This document shows, piece after piece, positions 2,863-10,408 of a stretch of DNA of 64,000 bases (position 1 is the first letter of the stretch; each line of letters opens with the position of its first letter). The translations under genes and the position numbers were made by a program. Below the pieces are notes generated by a model, which made no database searches, had not been told where the DNA came from, and saw only the letters and a program-made list of their open reading frames with translations. Source of the DNA: Myxococcota bacterium (lineage in GTDB: Bacteria; Myxococcota_A; UBA9160; UBA4427); NCBI GenBank assembly GCA_965250285.1, contig OZ252299.1, positions 2,144,001-2,208,000 of the forward strand, given 5' to 3'.

Positions 2863-3023
2863 GCCGCGACGCTAGCGCGCCGGGCGGCGCTCTCACGGCT
2901 GAGGGCCACGCCGTGTGCGCGCCCCCGCATGCGCCCCCTCGCCATTCCGCATGCGCTATCCCCTGGGATTCTGGTTCCCTTGCCCCGCCTCTTTCGCCTG
3001 CGCCTCACCGGAGAGGGATCGCC

Positions 3024-4013
3024 GTGCCCCTGCGCACCCACGCCGACTGCCTGTCGGGGCTTCGTCTGTGCCTGGCCGTGGCCGGCCTGCTGGTGTTCTG
3101 GCCAGGCGGCGCGCTCGCCCGCCCCCAGACGCCTGCGCCGACACCCGACGGCGAGCCGCCGACCGAGGCGCTGATCGGCGAGATCCCGTTCCACGCGTCG
3201 ACCCCGCTCAGCCGGGTGCTGCTCGATCTCGCACCGGAGGGGCGCAAACCCTTCCTGCTCATGTTGGACACCGGAGCCAGTACCAGCATCATCACGCCAC
3301 GGATGGCGCGCAACCTGGGCGTCAACGTGCGCCCGCACAAGAGCTCACCCTACCGACAGAGGACCCGGCTCGGTCGCGACCTGCTCTTTTGGGTCGACAC
3401 GCGTGCCAGTGACACCGGCGTGCAGGGGGGGAGCTTCGAGTTCGGGGTGCTCGGCAGCGACTTCCTCGACGACTACGTCCTCGAGATCGACTATCCGCGC
3501 CGGGTCGTGCGCTTCTGGGACGCGAAGGCCTATTCCATCCCCGAAACGCATCCTTCGCCCGACGTGCACGTCCTGCCATTCAAGCGCAGCGGCACGCGCA
3601 TCGTCGTTCCGGTCGAGCTCGATGGCCACGACTTCCACGCACTCTTCGATACCGGTGCGCCGTTCGTGCTGGTCTCCAAGAAGAACGCCAAGGCGGCGGG
3701 CGTCTCGAAGGAGGCCCTGCTGGAGACGGTGCCCATCGGCTACGTCCTCGGCGACGCCCAGAGCCGCGTGTACGAGCCTGAATCGCTGCGATTGGGCGGC
3801 GTCGAGGTGCCTCCAACGCCGATCCTGATCGAGTCCAAGTCGCCCATGAACGTCCCAGGCGGTGCCATCGTCGGCTATGACGCCTTCGGCCCGTTCAAGG
3901 TTCGCATCGACTACAAGCGCAAGCGCATCTCGCTCTCGAAGCCGGCGGATCCCCCGACGTTCATCAATGCGCTCGACACCTATCGGCGCGACCTTCGAGA
4001 GGCCGGGCAGTAG
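3024..4013 (+). CDS. Secreted aspartyl protease with two retropepsin-like domains
   Basis: Signal-like N-terminus; LDTGAS...GVLGSDFL and FDTGAP...AIVGYDAF; GTG start after GGAGAGG (start inferred). Confidence 0.75.
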   Translation: MPLRTHADCLSGLRLCLAVAGLLVFWPGGALARPQTPAPTPDGEPPTEALIGEIPFHASTPLSRVLLDLAPEGRKPFLLMLDTGASTSIITPRMARNLGVNVRPHKSSPYRQRTRLGRDLLFWVDTRASDTGVQGGSFEFGVLGSDFLDDYVLEIDYPRRVVRFWDAKAYSIPETHPSPDVHVLPFKRSGTRIVVPVELDGHDFHALFDTGAPFVLVSKKNAKAAGVSKEALLETVPIGYVLGDAQSRVYEPESLRLGGVEVPPTPILIESKSPMNVPGGAIVGYDAFGPFKVRIDYKRKRISLSKPADPPTFINALDTYRRDLREAGQ

Positions 4014-4037: not shown

Positions 4038-4535
4038 TCACCCGCCCTGGGTCACGCCGACCTTCGAAACCATGAACTGCACCGCTGCGCGCACCTCGTC
4101 GTCGCTCAGGTCGGCGTTGCCGCCGCGGGCGGGCATCTCGCCCACCTTGCCGTAGAAGCCCTGGGTCGCGTGCTCGACGAGCACGTCGAGGCCCTGAGCC
4201 ACGCGCGGCGACCAGAGCGCTTCGTTGCCGATCAGCGGCGCGCCGCCGAGACCGGTCGAGTGACAGTCGATGCACGTACCCGTCCACGTGACGCGGCCCG
4301 CTTCGAGAAGCGGATCGTCGACCGGCGTCTCCCAGAGCCCGGGATCGGGCAGCGCCGGCTTCGCCTTGGCGGCGGGCTGACTCAACACCGTGAAGCCGTC
4401 GCTCGGCGGCGGCTCTTCGGCGCCGGAGCAACCGAGCAAGACGACGCAGAGTGCCGCGGCCGCGACCAGGCGCGCGCGCAGACCCTCTGCGCGCGCGCCT
4501 CCCTTGGCCTGCTTCCTCCTCGCGGTGGGTCTCAC
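4038..4535 (-). CDS. Cytochrome c5-like monohaem lipoprotein
   Basis: Lipobox VLLGC, CIDCH, GAP, EMPARGG (Met ligand), LSDDEVRAAVQFM; GTG start overlaps the upstream TGA (GTGA). Confidence 0.8.
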   Translation of the reverse strand: MRPTARRKQAKGGARAEGLRARLVAAAALCVVLLGCSGAEEPPPSDGFTVLSQPAAKAKPALPDPGLWETPVDDPLLEAGRVTWTGTCIDCHSTGLGGAPLIGNEALWSPRVAQGLDVLVEHATQGFYGKVGEMPARGGNADLSDDEVRAAVQFMVSKVGVTQGG

Positions 4536-5119
4536 GAGCCGACGGGGATCCGGATCACCACGCCGCCCATCACGTCGCCCAGGGCGAAGTCGTCGCGGGG
4601 GGTGTCCTTGTGCTCGTTGTGGCAGCTGACGCACGCGGGGGCGACAGCCGTGTCGGCGTAGACCGCGGTGAAGTACTTCTGCCCGCCGAGGGTTTCCTCG
4701 GCGTAGAAGTTCTGACCCTTGTTGTCCGCGACGTACACGAGCCCCGCCTTCTCGACGTCTGTGCGCGGTGCGTTCTGCTTGTTGATGGGCCAGATCGAAA
4801 GCAGCGAATACGAGAAACCGGGCTCCTTCTCGGCCACCATCTCGGCGCCCATCCGGAACATCTGGGCGGGCAACGGCAGCGCAGGCTCCTCCTTCCAGTG
4901 CTCACTCGCCTTGATCACACCCTGCTCCTTCGCGAGCCGGTTGACGACGTTGCGCGTGTAGACCGTGCGGTCCGATTCCATCACAGCGTGCAAGGCGTCG
5001 GCCATCTGTTGCGGCTCGACGCCTCCTCCGCCGCTGCTCGCGTTGGACGGTTGACACCCGACACCCGTCAGGCCGATGCACAACGCCAGGCCCAACGCAC
5101 CGATCGTGCCGAACTTCAT
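4532..5119 (-). CDS. DUF3365/Tll0287-like monohaem lipoprotein
   Basis: Signal peptide with GVGC lipobox; PINKQNAP; C-terminal ACVSCH...GDVMGGVVIRIP typical of the DUF3365 haem domain. Confidence 0.75.
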   Translation of the reverse strand: MKFGTIGALGLALCIGLTGVGCQPSNASSGGGGVEPQQMADALHAVMESDRTVYTRNVVNRLAKEQGVIKASEHWKEEPALPLPAQMFRMGAEMVAEKEPGFSYSLLSIWPINKQNAPRTDVEKAGLVYVADNKGQNFYAEETLGGQKYFTAVYADTAVAPACVSCHNEHKDTPRDDFALGDVMGGVVIRIPVGS

Positions 5120-6516
5120 CACTTGCTCTCCTCTTGCCTTCCTTTGGTTTGGTTTTCCTGCCAGGGCGGGGGCTTCCCTTCGAGCTCCCAACGGAGCACG
5201 GTCGCGAAATGGATGCTGTCGACGGTGACCGAAGGCGGACCGTCGTAGTTCGTCGCGGCGAGTTCGGGGTCGGCCAGCGCATCGAGGGCGAAGCCGAGCC
5301 CGTGACAGTCGAGGCAGACCGGGCGAATCATCTTGTCGCCGGGCCGCAGCGTGTCGTTCTGGTTGTGGGCGACGCGGATGCCGCCTTCGTGATCGATGCG
5401 CGGCAGGTGGCAGGTCGCGCACGAGACCCCCGTGCCGGGCGCGCCGGCGCCGCTCTGCTCGGCCACCCAGAGTGCACCGTGCGAAGACGCCTCCCAGGCA
5501 CGACTGTGTTCGTCGGCGTGGCATTCGAGGCACGCCTCGGCCGCGGCCGTGCGCGTGTCGTAGCCATGGGCGCCGTGACACGACTGACAGCCGAGCTCGG
5601 CCTCGGCCGCATCGGCATGCATCGGGAGCCGTGCCTGCCCCGGCGTCATGGCCGGCAGGTCGGCGGCGAGCCGCATTCCGTGGCGGCCCGCGCCAAAACC
5701 GTCGTGCTCGAACTGGTGGCACTCGGCGCAGGCTGCGGGCGCGGGTTGATCCGCCCAGGCCGCGCCGGCCGGCGCATGACAGGCGTTGCAGTTGACGCCG
5801 GCCTCGGCGTGCGAGGTGCCCAGCCAGTCGGCGACGGCGTCGTCGCGCCCATCGAGATCGGGCGGGGCGTCTGCGTCGACGGCGAGCAGCGGCCGGGGGC
5901 CGGCATGGCCCTGCGCACGCGCCCACGCGAGCAGCCCGCGTTCCGGCGTTCTCGGATCGACCGCGAGCCTTGGCTCGTCGCGGTGGTCGACCAGGAAGTC
6001 TTCGTAGAGCGCGCGGTTGTCATGAAAGTTGTGACATCCCGAGGCCGCGCAGCCGTCGAAGGGCAGGCCCGCGTGAGTCGGCCGCTCTTCACCGACGTCT
6101 TCGTGGCAGCGGTAGCAGTAGTCACCCGGCAGGCTGAGTCCCATCGTCGAGGTCAACTCGGGGCGATGTTCCTGGTGACACGTCACACACCAACGCGCGT
6201 CGAGGGATTCGACCCGGTCGGCGTTGCGCGGATCGGTGAACTTGCGCTGCGGATGCGAATCGTCGACGAGCTTCAGCTCAGCGCCGTGACATTCGACGCA
6301 GGCGTCCTGCATCGTGGTCAGATCACCGAACGAATCGGTGTGGCACGCGTCGCAGGCGAGCTCGATCTGGTAGTGCCCATCGGTCGTCTCTCCGGGCAGG
6401 AAGACCGTGCGTTCGATGGGAGCGCCTTCGAGAATCTGCGGCTCGAACATCAGCATTGCGAGTGCCCCGGCGGCGACGGCCGATCCGATGGACCAGATCC
6501 AAAGCTTCCCCGCCAC
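5119..6516 (-). CDS. Membrane-anchored multihaem cytochrome c (10 CxxCH plus one CxxxxCH)
   Basis: N-terminal hydrophobic helix; CDACH, CVECH, CVTCH, CYRCH, CAASGCH, CNACH, CAECH, CQSCH, CLECH, CATCH, CLDCH. Confidence 0.9.
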   Translation of the reverse strand: MAGKLWIWSIGSAVAAGALAMLMFEPQILEGAPIERTVFLPGETTDGHYQIELACDACHTDSFGDLTTMQDACVECHGAELKLVDDSHPQRKFTDPRNADRVESLDARWCVTCHQEHRPELTSTMGLSLPGDYCYRCHEDVGEERPTHAGLPFDGCAASGCHNFHDNRALYEDFLVDHRDEPRLAVDPRTPERGLLAWARAQGHAGPRPLLAVDADAPPDLDGRDDAVADWLGTSHAEAGVNCNACHAPAGAAWADQPAPAACAECHQFEHDGFGAGRHGMRLAADLPAMTPGQARLPMHADAAEAELGCQSCHGAHGYDTRTAAAEACLECHADEHSRAWEASSHGALWVAEQSGAGAPGTGVSCATCHLPRIDHEGGIRVAHNQNDTLRPGDKMIRPVCLDCHGLGFALDALADPELAATNYDGPPSVTVDSIHFATVLRWELEGKPPPWQENQTKGRQEESK

Positions 6517-6531
6517 GCGGCTTCGCTCTCC

Positions 6532-8499
6532 TCAGTAGAAGTAGACCGCCAGGACGTGCGCGGCGGTGAGCACCGGCAGCGGCCAGACGACGAACACGTG
6601 CGCCGCGGTCCATCCACGACGCAATACCCCTCCCCACTCCGGCGACATCCGGCGCTCGAGCCAGGTCACCAGACCGGCGAGCGCGCCGAGCAGCGCCGCC
6701 GCGAGGAAGCAGAGCATCAGCACCTGATTGAGATTCGACCCGAGTCGGAACCCCGTGTGCGCAACGAGCAGGCCCAGCGTGGCGACGCCCATCGTCGCGT
6801 GGGCCACACGCCAACCCGATACCGAGCCGATCTTGAACCGACCGATGCGCTTGCGAATCGAGAAGATCAGGCTCGCGAGGACGACCCCCACGAGCGTGAA
6901 GCCGCTGATCTGCTTCGCGGTGGCGTCGCGCCAGATCCAGTCGATCCCCGGCCCCGTCTCGAGCGACGTCGACATCGGAATCGGATCGAACGCGCCGAAC
7001 AGGAGCACCCCGACGAGCCCGGCGACGCCCGCCAGACCGAGACCCCAGCCGGCCCCCCGGCGTCGGCTGTCGGCGCGCTCGCCCGCCAACGCTTCGAGCA
7101 GCGGCTCGCAGCTCCCGCAGACCGAAGCCGCGCCCGTCTCTTCACTGAGCGCCACAGAAGAGCACGCACCGCGCGCCTGGGCTGCGCGCAGCGCGCCGCA
7201 GGTGACGCCCGTGCAGGTACAGACGACGGCCGCATCGGGCCACTGGGCAATGGGCTTCTCGGCCCCGTCGGCCCAGAGCCGGCCGGTGCGGTCGAATCGG
7301 CGGCGTTGCCAGGCGCGGACCCGGGCCCCCTCCGATACGGCCTCTTGAAGCCGCGGAAACTCGGAGCCGGCGCCGACGGCGATCGCGCCGACGATGCGGC
7401 CTTCGCGCAAGACGATCCGGCGATACTCGTCGTCGCGCACCCAGCTGAGGGCCGAGACGCCCACGCCCTCGGCGAGCGAATCGCCCACGGCGGCCACGTC
7501 GATCTCGTCGATCTTGAGACGAGCCGAAGAGACGGCGCCTTCGAACGGGCGGGTCTCGCCGTCCATCCGCGCGATCCAAGACTCGACCATCTCGTAGCAG
7601 GGCGCGACCAGGCCATAGGTCTGGTCGCGGTGGCGCACGCACTCGCCGATGGCATCGATGTGCGGATCCGACGTCGCGAGGTGATCGTCGACCAGGATGC
7701 CGCCGCGATCGTCGCACGCGACGCCGGCGGCGCGCGCCAGGTCGTCCCGCGGCCGGATCCCCGCGGCGAGCACGATGAGATCGGCCGGCAGTCGCCGACC
7801 GTCGCTCAGCGTGACGGTCTTCTCGTCCTCGCGGCGCTCGATGTCGTCGACGCGTGCAAGCAGATGCAGCCCGATCCCGAAGGACCGGATCGCGCGTTCG
7901 AGCACGGCCGCCCCTTCTGCGTCGAGCTGGCGCGGCAAGAGCCGAGGCCCCATCTCGATGACGTCGACGGCGCAGCCGCGGGCGATCAGCCCGCGCGCGA
8001 GTTCGAGCCCGAGCAGCCCGCCGCCAGCGACCACGACGCGCGCGCCCACCTCGGCGCGCCGCGCGATCTCCTCGGCATCCTCGCGCGTGCGGTACGCGAC
8101 CACGCCCGAGTGCTCGATTCCGGGGATCGGCGGCCGAAATGGCGCGCCGCCGGTGGCGATCACGAGGCGGTCGTATTCGACGATCGAGCCCGTCTCGGTG
8201 CGCACCACGCGCGCCTCACGGTCGACCTCGACCACGCGATCCTTGACCCGCAGTCGGATCCCGTGATCGGCGTACCAGGCGGCGTCGCGCAGGGCGAGCT
8301 CGTCGCCCTCCTCGCCCTTGACCACGGCACCCAGGTGGATGCGGTCGTAGGGCGCGTGCAGCTCTTCGGAGAGCAGCGTCACCTGCATCCCCGAAGCCAG
8401 GCCGGTCGAGACCAGCCGTTCGGCGATGCGATGTGCCGTCATGCCGCCGCCGACGATCGCCAGGCGCACGGGATCGCTCCCGGTCAACGCCGCCGCCAC
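6532..8499 (-). CDS. NirB-like FAD/NAD(P)H oxidoreductase with BFD-like [2Fe-2S] domain and C-terminal His-containing membrane domain
   Basis: IVGGGM, PYDRIHL, IATGG, VAGGGLLGLELA, AIGEC; CTC...CGSC; about five hydrophobic helices with two His pairs each 14 residues apart; no sirohaem/4Fe-4S domain. Confidence 0.8.
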   Translation of the reverse strand: MAAALTGSDPVRLAIVGGGMTAHRIAERLVSTGLASGMQVTLLSEELHAPYDRIHLGAVVKGEEGDELALRDAAWYADHGIRLRVKDRVVEVDREARVVRTETGSIVEYDRLVIATGGAPFRPPIPGIEHSGVVAYRTREDAEEIARRAEVGARVVVAGGGLLGLELARGLIARGCAVDVIEMGPRLLPRQLDAEGAAVLERAIRSFGIGLHLLARVDDIERREDEKTVTLSDGRRLPADLIVLAAGIRPRDDLARAAGVACDDRGGILVDDHLATSDPHIDAIGECVRHRDQTYGLVAPCYEMVESWIARMDGETRPFEGAVSSARLKIDEIDVAAVGDSLAEGVGVSALSWVRDDEYRRIVLREGRIVGAIAVGAGSEFPRLQEAVSEGARVRAWQRRRFDRTGRLWADGAEKPIAQWPDAAVVCTCTGVTCGALRAAQARGACSSVALSEETGAASVCGSCEPLLEALAGERADSRRRGAGWGLGLAGVAGLVGVLLFGAFDPIPMSTSLETGPGIDWIWRDATAKQISGFTLVGVVLASLIFSIRKRIGRFKIGSVSGWRVAHATMGVATLGLLVAHTGFRLGSNLNQVLMLCFLAAALLGALAGLVTWLERRMSPEWGGVLRRGWTAAHVFVVWPLPVLTAAHVLAVYFY

Positions 8500-8542
8500 G
8501 CCGGCCTCCGCATCGAGGTCTGATGCGCGCGCCGCACCCGAC

Positions 8543-8950
8543 TCAGGCCGCCGCGTCGATCATCACGGTCGAGAGAATCCCGTACGTCTTGACCCAGGCT
8601 TCGCGGGCTTCGTCGGTGAAGTCGTCGCCGAGCGCCGTGGCGAGCGTGTCGATCAGCACCTCGCCGACGACCGGATAGTGATCGGGCAGCGCCCCGTAGT
8701 CGGCGTGGCGCTTGCCGCTGGCCTCGACCGCGGGGACGATCTTCTCGATCTCGTCCATGTTGTTCACGGCGACGCCGATCATCGTCATCAGCTTCTGCCC
8801 CTGCGCCTTCATGTCTTCGGGAAAGAGCGGGCGCACGCCGGGTGCCTTCGCGAAGAGCTTCCCGTAGAAGAGGGTGGCGGCGGCATCGGGATCGGCGCCC
8901 GCGATCTCCCAGGTCTTGCGTACGACTTCGATCTCTCGGTCCGTGAACAC
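8543..8950 (-). CDS. Single-domain globin (flavohaemoglobin/Vitreoscilla haemoglobin-like fold)
   Basis: AAGGAG RBS then GTG; FYGKLF (TyrB10), PLFP, QGQKL (GlnE7), GKRHADYG (HisF8), HYPVVG, AWVKTYG. Confidence 0.9.
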   Translation of the reverse strand: MFTDREIEVVRKTWEIAGADPDAAATLFYGKLFAKAPGVRPLFPEDMKAQGQKLMTMIGVAVNNMDEIEKIVPAVEASGKRHADYGALPDHYPVVGEVLIDTLATALGDDFTDEAREAWVKTYGILSTVMIDAAA

Positions 8951-8992
8951 GTTCGACTCCTTTGGCTCGGTTTCGAGAGCCCCAAACGAGCG

Positions 8993-9093
8993 AAGGGCGC
9001 TCCGGTCGATCCGCCCCGTCGCGTACGACGGTTCGGCTCGATCGAGGCGCCCTTGCCTCCGGGTCTCACCCATGCGCCCGACACACCGTGGTG
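8993..9093 (-). promoter_or_regulatory. Candidate ANTAR-type dual-hairpin leader with a competing terminator-like stem
   Basis: Minus strand: CAC-CACGGT-GTG (9082-9093) and GAGGC-AAGGGC-GCCTC (9044-9059) hexaloop hairpins; AAGGGCGC of hairpin 2 can instead pair with GCGCCCTT (8993-9000); U-tract is weak. Confidence 0.5.
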
Positions 9094-9121
9094 GACGCCG
9101 ACATTCGATGCGCCGAAGCAT

Positions 9122-9137
9122 TTCAAGAAGCGGGCCA
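9122..9137 (-). promoter_or_regulatory. Candidate sigma54 (-24/-12) promoter of the globin operon
   Basis: TGGCCCGCTTCTTGAA versus consensus TGGCACG-N4-TTGC; spacing is correct but -12 reads GA rather than GC. Confidence 0.5.
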
Positions 9138-9403: not shown

Positions 9404-10408
9404 ATGCCGAACGACGCGAACTACAAGAGCTACGGCGAGCAGTCGCTGCACTACTTCGCCCGCCCCCACGAAACGACGCCGACCACCCCGGTCGGCGGTG
9501 CGGCGGCGTGGCGCGGGGCAGAGCTCGGGCGGCGTGAGGCATGGAAGACGCAGCTCGACGAGAAGCAGGTCGATGAGATCGAAGCGGCCCTCGATCATGT
9601 CGAGGCGACGGGCCGAGCCACGGGCGAGCTCGAAGCGGCCGACTTTCCTCTGCCGACGCTTGCATCCGAAGTGGCCGCGTGGCGCAACGAGATCGCGACG
9701 GGTCGGGGCTTCCACGTCGTCCGGGGCGTGCCGGTGGAGCGGTGGTCTACCGAGCGGGCCGAGCGCTTCTTCTGGTGCATCGGCCTGCACATGGGCACAC
9801 CCGGCGCGCAGAATGCGCGGGGGGAGCTGCTCGGACACGTGACGGATACCGGTGCGCGCGAGACCGACCGCTTCGTCCGGCTGTACGAGACGCGGGCCGA
9901 CATCGCGTTTCACTGCGACGCCGCCGACGTGGTCGGCCTGCTCTGCCTCTCGGCCGGACGTGCGGGCGGGGCAAGCCGCATCGCCAGCTCGGTGTCGGTC
10001 CACGACGAGCTGCTGGCGCGCCGTCCCGACCTGGTGCCCCGTCTCTACGAGCCATTCGCGCTCGACGTGCGCAGCGAGGGCGATCGCGCAGCCCTTCGGC
10101 ACATCCCGGTGCCCCCCTGCCGCTTTGCCGATGGCCGGCTCCGCACCTTCTACCACAGCGACTACTTTCGCTCGGCGACACGGCACGACGACGTGCCCGA
10201 GCTCGACGAGGCCGAGTGCGCGTTGCTCGACCTGTTCGAGTCGATCGCGGGCGAGCCCGAATTCCGCCTCGACATGCAGCTCGAGCCCGGCGACATCCAG
10301 TGGCTGTCGAATCACACCGTGGTGCACGCGCGAACCGCATACGAAGACGGGGGGAACGACGCCGAGCGCCGCCACCTCCTCCGCCTCTGGCTGTCGATCG
10401 AGGACTGA
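9404..10408 (+). CDS. TauD/TfdA (clavaminate synthase-like) dioxygenase
   Basis: GRGF, QN..G.LLGHV, FHCD, GDIQWLSNHTVVHARTAY, RHLLRLWL. Confidence 0.85.
   Translation: MPNDANYKSYGEQSLHYFARPHETTPTTPVGGAAAWRGAELGRREAWKTQLDEKQVDEIEAALDHVEATGRATGELEAADFPLPTLASEVAAWRNEIATGRGFHVVRGVPVERWSTERAERFFWCIGLHMGTPGAQNARGELLGHVTDTGARETDRFVRLYETRADIAFHCDAADVVGLLCLSAGRAGGASRIASSVSVHDELLARRPDLVPRLYEPFALDVRSEGDRAALRHIPVPPCRFADGRLRTFYHSDYFRSATRHDDVPELDEAECALLDLFESIAGEPEFRLDMQLEPGDIQWLSNHTVVHARTAYEDGGNDAERRHLLRLWLSIED

Follow-up and report, generated by a model that had tools for sequence, protein, structure and literature searches.

What does a bacterium gain from encoding, side by side, a globin, a flavoprotein fused to a membrane domain and an eleven-haem cytochrome? 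The question is raised by a five-gene operon on the minus strand of a 64,000-nucleotide stretch of the genome of a Myxococcota bacterium (assembly GCA_965250285.1, contig OZ252299.1, positions 2,144,001 to 2,208,000; G000:C1:2144001-2208000 in our labels), hereafter the window. The source genome, G000, is a single 6.25-Mb contig rated 95% complete. The five genes form a conserved module that recurs in many unrelated bacteria. Judged from conserved ligands, its proteins very probably form an electron conduit running from NAD(P)H through FAD, a [2Fe-2S] cluster and two b haems to eleven c haems, and on to a Tll0287-like haem protein and an optional cytochrome c5. More tentatively, and a little short of an even chance in our estimate, this NADH-fed transmembrane haem chain and the globin would together remove or salvage nitric oxide (NO) and hydroxylamine during nitrate use.

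An earlier note on this DNA had drawn five co-oriented, tightly spaced minus-strand genes with two overlaps. All are present as it placed them; the promoter and leader at 8984-9137 had been overlooked. In order of transcription, the genes are separated by 43 then 15 bases, followed by TGATG and GTGA overlaps:

8543-8950, minus: globin (PF00042), 135 residues; a single-domain 3/3 globin, signal peptide absent.
6532-8499, minus: flavoprotein; NirB-type FAD/NAD(P)H domain, BFD [2Fe-2S] domain and five-helix membrane domain, no sirohaem domain.
Within 6532-8499, minus: membrane domain of the flavoprotein; two His pairs, likely di-haem b from sequence and model.
5119-6516, minus: 11-haem cytochrome c; N-terminal anchor, small-tetrahaem-like part, CX4CH haem and a six-haem core homologous to hydroxylamine oxidoreductase (HAO).
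4532-5119, minus: Tll0287-like monohaem protein (DUF3365, sCache_heme, PF11845), here the Tll protein; stand-alone, probable lipoprotein.
4038-4535, minus: cytochrome c5-type monohaem lipoprotein (PF13442) with CxxCH and MPxRGG; an optional member, start uncertain.

No Shine-Dalgarno-like sequence precedes the c5 start at 4535, and the true start may lie further downstream. An artefact of GC-rich reading frames is excluded by ligands that are invariant across phyla, and the source genome encodes the genes for cytochrome c assembly.

Composition and conservation of the module

A scan of GTDB genomes with the cytochrome confirmed 360 relatives, and the locus counts given here describe the best 80 of these 360. 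As the closest relatives, with near-duplicates included, they do not give independent counts; L112 and L113, which look like duplicates of other loci, were not treated as independent. Loci are labelled from L001 and host genomes from G000. Open reading frames of at least 90 residues were called in the loci and clustered into families, and the 51 loci with at least 8 kb on both sides are referred to as long loci. The flavoprotein is found in 76 of the 80 loci (50 of 51 long loci), the Tll protein in 77 (50 of 51) and the globin in 66 (43 of 51). The c5 protein is present in at least 23 of the 80 (17 of 51 long loci), the clustering having overlooked the copy in L002. A truncated 2/2 globin takes the place of the globin in L013, L071 and L077. 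By record titles, the hosts include Gamma- and Betaproteobacteria, Myxococcota, Verrucomicrobiota, Planctomycetota, Acidobacteriota, Nitrospirota and others; the module is nonetheless patchy, being found in 4 of 251 genomes sampled from the source phylum. Plasmid records contained none matching the cytochrome. Some close relatives carry the globin gene in the opposite orientation, diverging from the flavoprotein gene (L002:6661-7086, L008:7300-7707 and L111:3466-3861), and in L111 a sigma-54-like site stands ahead of it.

The flavoprotein matches the NirB profile TIGR02374 over positions 1-465 of 794 only (397 bits against a 578-bit cut-off). The match stops at 465, and the sirohaem/[4Fe-4S] half of NirB (PF01077, PF03460) is absent. 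The fusion described in the earlier note is borne out: a NirB-type N-terminus with an FAD/NAD(P)H domain is followed by one BFD motif, whose cysteines C427, C429, C461 and C464 are invariant in 66/66 aligned homologues, and by five predicted C-terminal helices. The NAD(P)H-binding motifs are intact, and the second Rossmann strand ends in an acidic residue in 54/66 homologues, which by the usual rule favours NADH. Two histidine pairs, His567/581 and His634/648, are likewise invariant in 66/66. In the structural model (predicted local distance difference test, pLDDT, 91.5) these pairs lie on helices 3 and 5, spaced by 14 residues, and the two helices run in the same direction across the membrane, an arrangement that could hold one haem near each membrane face. 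Two His pairs 13-14 residues apart on parallel helices, as expected of a ferric-reductase domain or cytochrome b561, are present, and we take this to be the pattern seen in NOX and MsrQ. Among 16 membrane domains compared with Pfam, sub-threshold matches were obtained to Ni_hydr_CYTB (cytochrome b561; 6/16, best E 8e-4), DUF4405 (8/16) and Ferric_reduct (1/16, E 0.32). A Foldseek search with the whole flavoprotein model was filled by matches to the FAD domain, and an ESM Atlas search with the membrane domain gave no named match. Weak Atlas look-alikes of this domain (0.77) are stand-alone proteins in Cyanobacteriota and Nitrososphaerota. In a quick tree of 42 rows (31 hand-picked cassette rows and 11 NirB), the module interleaves with NirB N-termini; the tree needs two changes, and we claim no order of origin from it.

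The count of eleven haems in the anchored cytochrome also stands, as ten CxxCH motifs and one CX4CH follow an N-terminal membrane helix, and the same count is found in 79/81 family members. The active-site motif of NrfA/ONR, CxxCK, occurs in 0/81. The cytochrome model has a pLDDT of 81 (50-70 in the N-terminal haem region). Residues 42-166 weakly match small tetrahaem cytochromes (Z 2.9), and for residues 212-426 the top four VIA structure rows are all of the HAO family, with middling scores (Z 6.1-7.0, root-mean-square deviation 3.9-4.3). Foldseek rows 1-9 are also HAO-family chains, at E 0.003-0.05 with none below 0.001. The relationship is clearer in profile comparison. In an hhalign comparison with 12 aligned octahaem HAO-like proteins from the source phylum, anchored to solved HAOs, the probability was 99.2 and E 1.9e-19 over 205 columns (residues 221-427). 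Six haem motifs of the cytochrome correspond to HAO haems 2, 3, 5, 6, 7 and 8, and the cytochrome retains the His of the PDH motif that follows haem 6 (His337 in 68/68) together with Asp335 (66/68). The histidine of this motif has a catalytic role in HAO, for which our literature search found no paper. The haem-4 CxxCH, present in 12/12 of the HAO-like comparators, aligns to a deletion in the cytochrome, and the haem-1 motif is absent at its position. Haem 4 is the five-coordinate catalytic haem of HAO, as described in PMC8042395. Homology extends some 25 residues beyond the last haem; the alignment stops at residue 427 (HAO-like 343 of 462), and the C-terminal HAO helices with the cross-linking Tyr are absent. 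By its sequence, the C-terminal half of the cytochrome is homologous to hydroxylamine oxidoreductase and has lost the catalytic haem-4 motif. The stretch GCHNFHDN around the CX4CH haem is invariant. The ESM Atlas names the family automatically as 'nitrite reductase (cytochrome; ammonia-forming)'. A search with PF13447 gave no match in five genomes, the source genome included, and no positive control matched either.

The globin has no reductase domain and fits the single-domain Vgb/Cgb/Bjgb type (Tyr B10, Gln E7, His F8). Among solved structures it is closest to single-domain bacterial globins (3wfw, 3s1i and 3ubc, then 1vhb). Tyr29, Phe43, Gln50 and His82, which we take from Vitreoscilla numbering to be B10, CD1, E7 and F8, are invariant in 52/52 homologues, and the Tyr/Gln pair singled out by the earlier note is among them. 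The DUF3365-like haem lipoprotein is equally recognisable, with 76.3 bits to PF11845 (cut-off 24.1) and a CxxCH; its lipobox is imperfect, with Cys22 in 48/60. It is the most conserved member of the module (48-79% identity to the window copy) and carries an invariant Met87 and His170 with no distal Cys. Aligning it by sequence with solved structures gave no match. For a stand-alone family member from P. putida, redox-carrier behaviour at about +120 mV is reported, along with weak binding of NO (bioRxiv 10.64898/2026.02.01.703092).

These invariant ligands lend support to the layout that the earlier note had proposed, in which NADH, FAD, [2Fe-2S], haem b and haem c are arranged across the membrane, with haem b probably bound and electrons probably flowing outwards.

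Regulation and genomic setting

Three elements are predicted upstream of the globin gene:

9123-9137, minus: predicted sigma-54-like (-24/-12) promoter element; the same site type stands before the genome's own nirB, nrtA and cynS.
9044-9060, minus: predicted ANTAR-type (NasT) hairpin; six-base loop with A1 and G4.
8984-9052, minus: predicted terminator-like stem overlapping the ANTAR hairpin; weak U-tract.

A hexaloop hairpin with A1 and G4 is the signature recognised by ANTAR proteins, as described in PMC3369931. The leader folds with a z of -2.38, 2/200 shuffles being as good, and the leaders of the genome's own nirB, nrtA and cynS share its hairpin/terminator layout. The second, upstream hexaloop of the dual motif is clear in L001 and in the own nrtA leader, and not clearly recognisable in the window. 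Our first leader pattern matched seven times in the whole source genome, and four of these matches precede nirB, nrtA, cyanase and this operon. Scored separately, the genome holds 53 sigma-54-like sites and 162 hairpins; both occur together at four sites against 0.16 expected, a figure that overstates the significance since the patterns were written after viewing these leaders. Those four sites are exactly nirB, nrtA, cyanase and this operon. L001 also carries both elements, with a near-identical site 82 nt before the hairpin, the same spacing as in the window. Neither element precedes the cassette in L112, L004, L008 or L113. With looser patterns, a sigma-54-like site is found before the first cassette gene in 12/71 loci (background 3.3%) and a hairpin in 11/71 (5.2%); many other loci sit inside nas operons. 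An initial strict leader expression, run across loci, returned mostly noise (25 matches, 14 of them not near a named gene), and an Rfam search gave a single chance match (E 2.2). We predict that the operon is switched on with the nitrate-assimilation genes. The cyanase leader of the same type belongs to a locus with an ABC transporter and a second ANTAR protein (G000:C1:3625888-3631053, L086).

The gene neighbourhood also bears out the nitrogen link that the earlier note had anticipated: nitrate transport, nasST, narK, nasA or nirBD genes lie in 39/80 loci and 25/51 long loci, besides the leader shared with nirB, nrtA and cyanase. In six loci an Rrf2 regulator with three C-terminal Cys stands directly upstream (NsrR score 110 bits, cut-off 182). 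In the source genome the cassette lies 3.7 Mb from a complete nas cluster encoding a NirB-NirD fusion with sirohaem domain, a DmsB-like protein, nasA, nasT, nasS, nrtABCD and a porin. The trio of NirB-NirD fusion, DmsB-like Fe-S protein and nasA (L084, G000:C1:5888872-5904000) is also seen in L017, L029, L035 and L046; a DmsB-like protein between NirB and NasA is unusual, and in L017 it has 578 residues. Between nrt genes and cassette, an alginate-export-type porin is seen repeatedly (L025, L050, L063, L066 and others); the porin cluster is present in 14 loci, AlgE-type in 5, and also follows nrtD in the source nas cluster. A fusion of PP2C phosphatase and Ser-Thr kinase lies beside narK in nine loci, including L027, L034, L048, L057 and L075.

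We surveyed host genomes for 50 of the 80 loci, preferring longer contigs and a broad spread; the assemblies are mostly incomplete, and the gene-presence counts have no matched control set. The earlier note had suggested looking for an absence of sirohaem nirB/nirA alongside the cassette. The opposite was found, with a full NirB in the source genome and in 37/50 surveyed hosts, and 9/80 loci themselves contain the sirohaem half of NirB. A NasA-like match of at least 330 bits, a threshold of our own, is present in 42/50. Of the 13 genomes without NirB, four (G026, G032, G038 and G050) encode a second sirohaem protein adjacent to nasA or to the cassette and seven have other sirohaem proteins; G011 and G036 gave no sirohaem domain by two Pfam models. 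G011 encodes a NarG-type enzyme as well as an FNT channel, with no NirB, NirK or NirS found. In G036, a single-chromosome record, the three-gene core (L056) abuts and converges on urease and urea-uptake ABC genes. Flavohaemoglobin is found in 3/51 genomes and Hcp in 4/51. NirK or NirS occurs in 9/51 genomes only, with neither in the source genome, and a link to denitrification was rejected on these grounds. The NirB open frames of G008, G030 and G049 reach 1245-1339 residues, suggesting two-module NirB fusions or extra domains.

Within the window, the flanking genes concern unrelated themes. A protein with two retropepsin-like aspartyl protease domains (2913-4013, plus) converges on the operon end, and two TauD-family dioxygenases flank the operon (788-1627 and 9404-10408, both plus), after which come a GH1 glycosidase and a sulfatase.

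Candidate functions

In our preferred and still tentative reading, electrons would pass from cytoplasmic NAD(P)H via FAD, the [2Fe-2S] cluster and the membrane b haems to the periplasmic 11-haem cytochrome and the Tll haem protein, with c5 as an optional carrier. NO and hydroxylamine would be reduced outside the cell, and the globin would handle NO inside. The globin may turn NO and O2 into nitrate, as NO dioxygenases do, and so feed NasA; it would be re-reduced by the flavin/[2Fe-2S] module, by analogy with what is proposed for Flp and Bjgb. The catalytic site lost with haem 4 may have been rebuilt, with the CX4CH haem or the Tll haem facing the retained Asp335/His337; the cytochrome family has 12 conserved non-motif His for 11 haems, which permits one open site facing His337. 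The products would be nitrate inside and ammonium or N2O outside, protecting NasA/NirB and recovering nitrogen. We favour removal and salvage of NO and hydroxylamine during nitrate use in view of the shared leader and the nitrate-gene neighbours, of a globin position that two unrelated classes of globin occupy and of the NsrR-like regulators in six loci. Furthermore, NirB alongside the module in most surveyed genomes implies that nitrite is already handled, and we count the scarcity of flavohaemoglobin and Hcp as other NO sinks in favour of NO removal. There is precedent for both halves of the proposal: narK-bjgb-flp-nasC, which is under NasT control, is described as detoxifying NO from nitrate assimilation, where NasC can make NO (PMC4724949), and reductive HAO is reported to reduce nitrite, NO and hydroxylamine in vitro (PMC8042395).

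Several observations weigh against this reading. For 26/51 long loci the nearest 10 kb or so contain no nitrate gene, L002 and L111 show the sigma-54-like site with no hairpin match, and ANTAR proteins, two of which are encoded in the source genome, occur in 28/51 genomes only; the post hoc leader patterns have been mentioned above. G036 has no globin in the locus and no match to sirohaem, NasA, NarG, NirK, NirS or ANTAR. None of the 16 membrane domains scores over a Pfam cut-off, and the aligned haem-4 motif is deleted. The 12 His for 11 haems equally allow an all-bis-His wire with no open site. Finally, NO crosses membranes freely, so that a periplasmic reductase is not obviously needed.

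The lead idea of the earlier note was that the module replaces sirohaem nitrite reductase. Formulated as an NADH-driven, sirohaem-independent periplasmic enzyme that turns nitrite into ammonium beside or instead of NirBD, with the globin mopping up NO, it draws on the HAO homology with its retained Asp335 and His337, on the automatic 'ammonia-forming' label, on the two hosts that match neither sirohaem Pfam and on the NarG-type enzyme and FNT channel of G011. However, the source genome has a NirB-NirD fusion and 37 of the 50 surveyed hosts a full NirB, four more genomes have a second sirohaem protein linked to nasA or the cassette, the NirB sirohaem half shares the locus in 9/80, the cytochrome has neither CxxCK nor the haem-4 motif, and G011 is a multi-contig assembly, which weakens its absences. 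We therefore consider this explanation unlikely. The alternative substrates of the earlier note, NO and hydroxylamine, fit better, and replacement of sirohaem nitrite reductase is not supported as the main reading; in G011 and G036, where no sirohaem domain was found, the cassette could yet reduce nitrite. A broader version, which we regard as doubtful, sees a third route of N-oxide assimilation: an unclassified di-haem b domain feeding an HAO-derived cytochrome with a rebuilt site (CX4CH or Tll haem) would turn nitrite, NO or hydroxylamine into periplasmic ammonium without sirohaem or quinol, as the sole such enzyme in hosts like G011 and G036.

Improbable, too, is a non-catalytic wire, an NADH:cytochrome c oxidoreductase passing surplus electrons through Tll and c5 to a terminal oxidase so as to lower O2 or balance redox near the nitrate enzymes, which are O2-sensitive, with the globin buffering O2. 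The His count would allow it, but c5 is found in only about 23/80 loci, such a wire would presumably compete for NADH needed by nitrate assimilation, and it leaves the retained Asp335/His337, the invariant GCHNFHDN and the NsrR-like regulators unexplained. Electrons might instead flow inwards, the HAO-related cytochrome oxidising periplasmic hydroxylamine, or taking electrons from c5, to supply the globin or NasA and capture nitrogen from neighbours such as ammonia oxidisers. The HAO ancestry, the co-regulation with cyanase and the adjacency of L056 to urea uptake and urease genes point towards nitrogen scavenging of this kind; the intact NAD(P)H-binding motifs and the missing C-terminal helices with the cross-linking Tyr that characterises oxidative HAOs (PMC8042395) make it very unlikely. 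Most improbable of all, in our view, is a role as electron donor to NirS, NirK, Nor or Nap, or as reductase of other nitrogen compounds such as nitro-organics or N-oxides: the periplasmic c-type carriers would suit it and a few hosts are denitrifiers, but the scarcity of NirK and NirS, absent from the source genome, and the assimilatory type of regulation speak against it.

Relation to known systems and significance

The module is uncharacterised in the literature searched. The earlier note knew of no characterised complex with this composition, and we likewise found no description of the cassette in that literature, which lay mostly outside subscription papers; two further papers (PMC9230427, PMC8940962) concern, in their available text, other systems, and none of six terms looked for in bioRxiv 10.64898/2026.01.22.701106 is used there. 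By its sequence features the module is none of NirB, NrfA/ONR or HAO. It shares with NirB the FAD/NAD(P)H domain and first BFD cluster, whereas the second BFD, the sirohaem/[4Fe-4S] half and NirD are missing and a membrane domain takes their place. With octahaem HAOs (NeHAO, Kuenenia HAO and HAOr, Ignicoccus octahaem 4QO5) the cytochrome aligns over six haems and keeps the PDH His, but it is without the haem-4 and haem-1 motifs and the C-terminal helical/trimer region, adds five N-terminal haems including CX4CH and a membrane anchor, and is probably fed by NADH, not quinol.

The closest likeness in setting is to Bradyrhizobium narK-bjgb-flp-nasC, which has NasS-NasT control, a nitrate-assimilation context and a single-domain globin with an NAD(P)H flavoprotein, and in which Bjgb-Flp coexists with a separate sirohaem nitrite reductase (PMC4724949). 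Bjgb-Flp differs in being described as cytoplasmic, and the available part of that account mentions neither a haem domain in the membrane nor a multihaem cytochrome or a Tll protein; Flp is likened to the cassette flavoprotein by description. MsrQ/NOX chains resemble the proposed design of the module, with cytosolic NAD(P)H, flavin, membrane haem b and a dedicated periplasmic acceptor; MsrQ is described as being fed by a cytosolic NADH oxidoreductase, passing electrons to MsrP and binding ubiquinone (PMC12525009), which leaves the quinone-free route of the earlier note no more than a possibility. In contrast, in the cassette a glutathione-reductase-type flavoprotein part with [2Fe-2S] is fused N-terminally to the membrane domain, and the acceptor is a multihaem cytochrome. 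The Tll protein belongs with the stand-alone class of sCache_heme/DUF3365/Tll0287 proteins, sharing PF11845, the CxxCH insertion and the lack of a signalling domain, but has an invariant Met87 instead of the distal Cys described for that class; the available main text of the preprint (bioRxiv 10.64898/2026.02.01.703092) mentions none of nitrate, nitrite, operon or multiheme. Finally, ptdABCDEFG of marine Alphaproteobacteria, whose function is given as unknown (bioRxiv 10.1101/2023.11.21.568154), also joins an FAD/NAD(P) oxidoreductase and a ferric-reductase-like membrane protein to periplasmic multihaem proteins. These are, however, penta-, tetra- and decahaem proteins, accompanied by a porin and a cNMP/4Fe-4S protein, and the available text describes no globin, Tll or 11-haem protein. 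That the module is the same as Ptd, or as the Uet undecahaem system (PMC10734462), was rejected on the differing gene sets, as given in their descriptions.

Nitrate assimilation is regarded as a cytoplasmic, well-catalogued process, and the module adds to it an unstudied membrane-spanning branch that is spread across many phyla. Cultured hosts exist (Alcanivorax, Spongiibacter, Neptuniibacter, Pelagicoccus and Cerasicoccus), which makes the proposal directly testable. The automatic naming of the cytochrome as an ammonia-forming nitrite reductase could inflate counts for dissimilatory nitrate reduction to ammonium. If removal or salvage of NO and hydroxylamine is indeed its function, the module would be a sink for reactive nitrogen that has been overlooked in heterotrophs of sea and soil; among the genomes covered here, most of these gave no Hmp or Hcp. 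Stand-alone DUF3365 proteins would then gain a physiological context, and the cytochrome would stand for an HAO lineage that has lost its catalytic haem.

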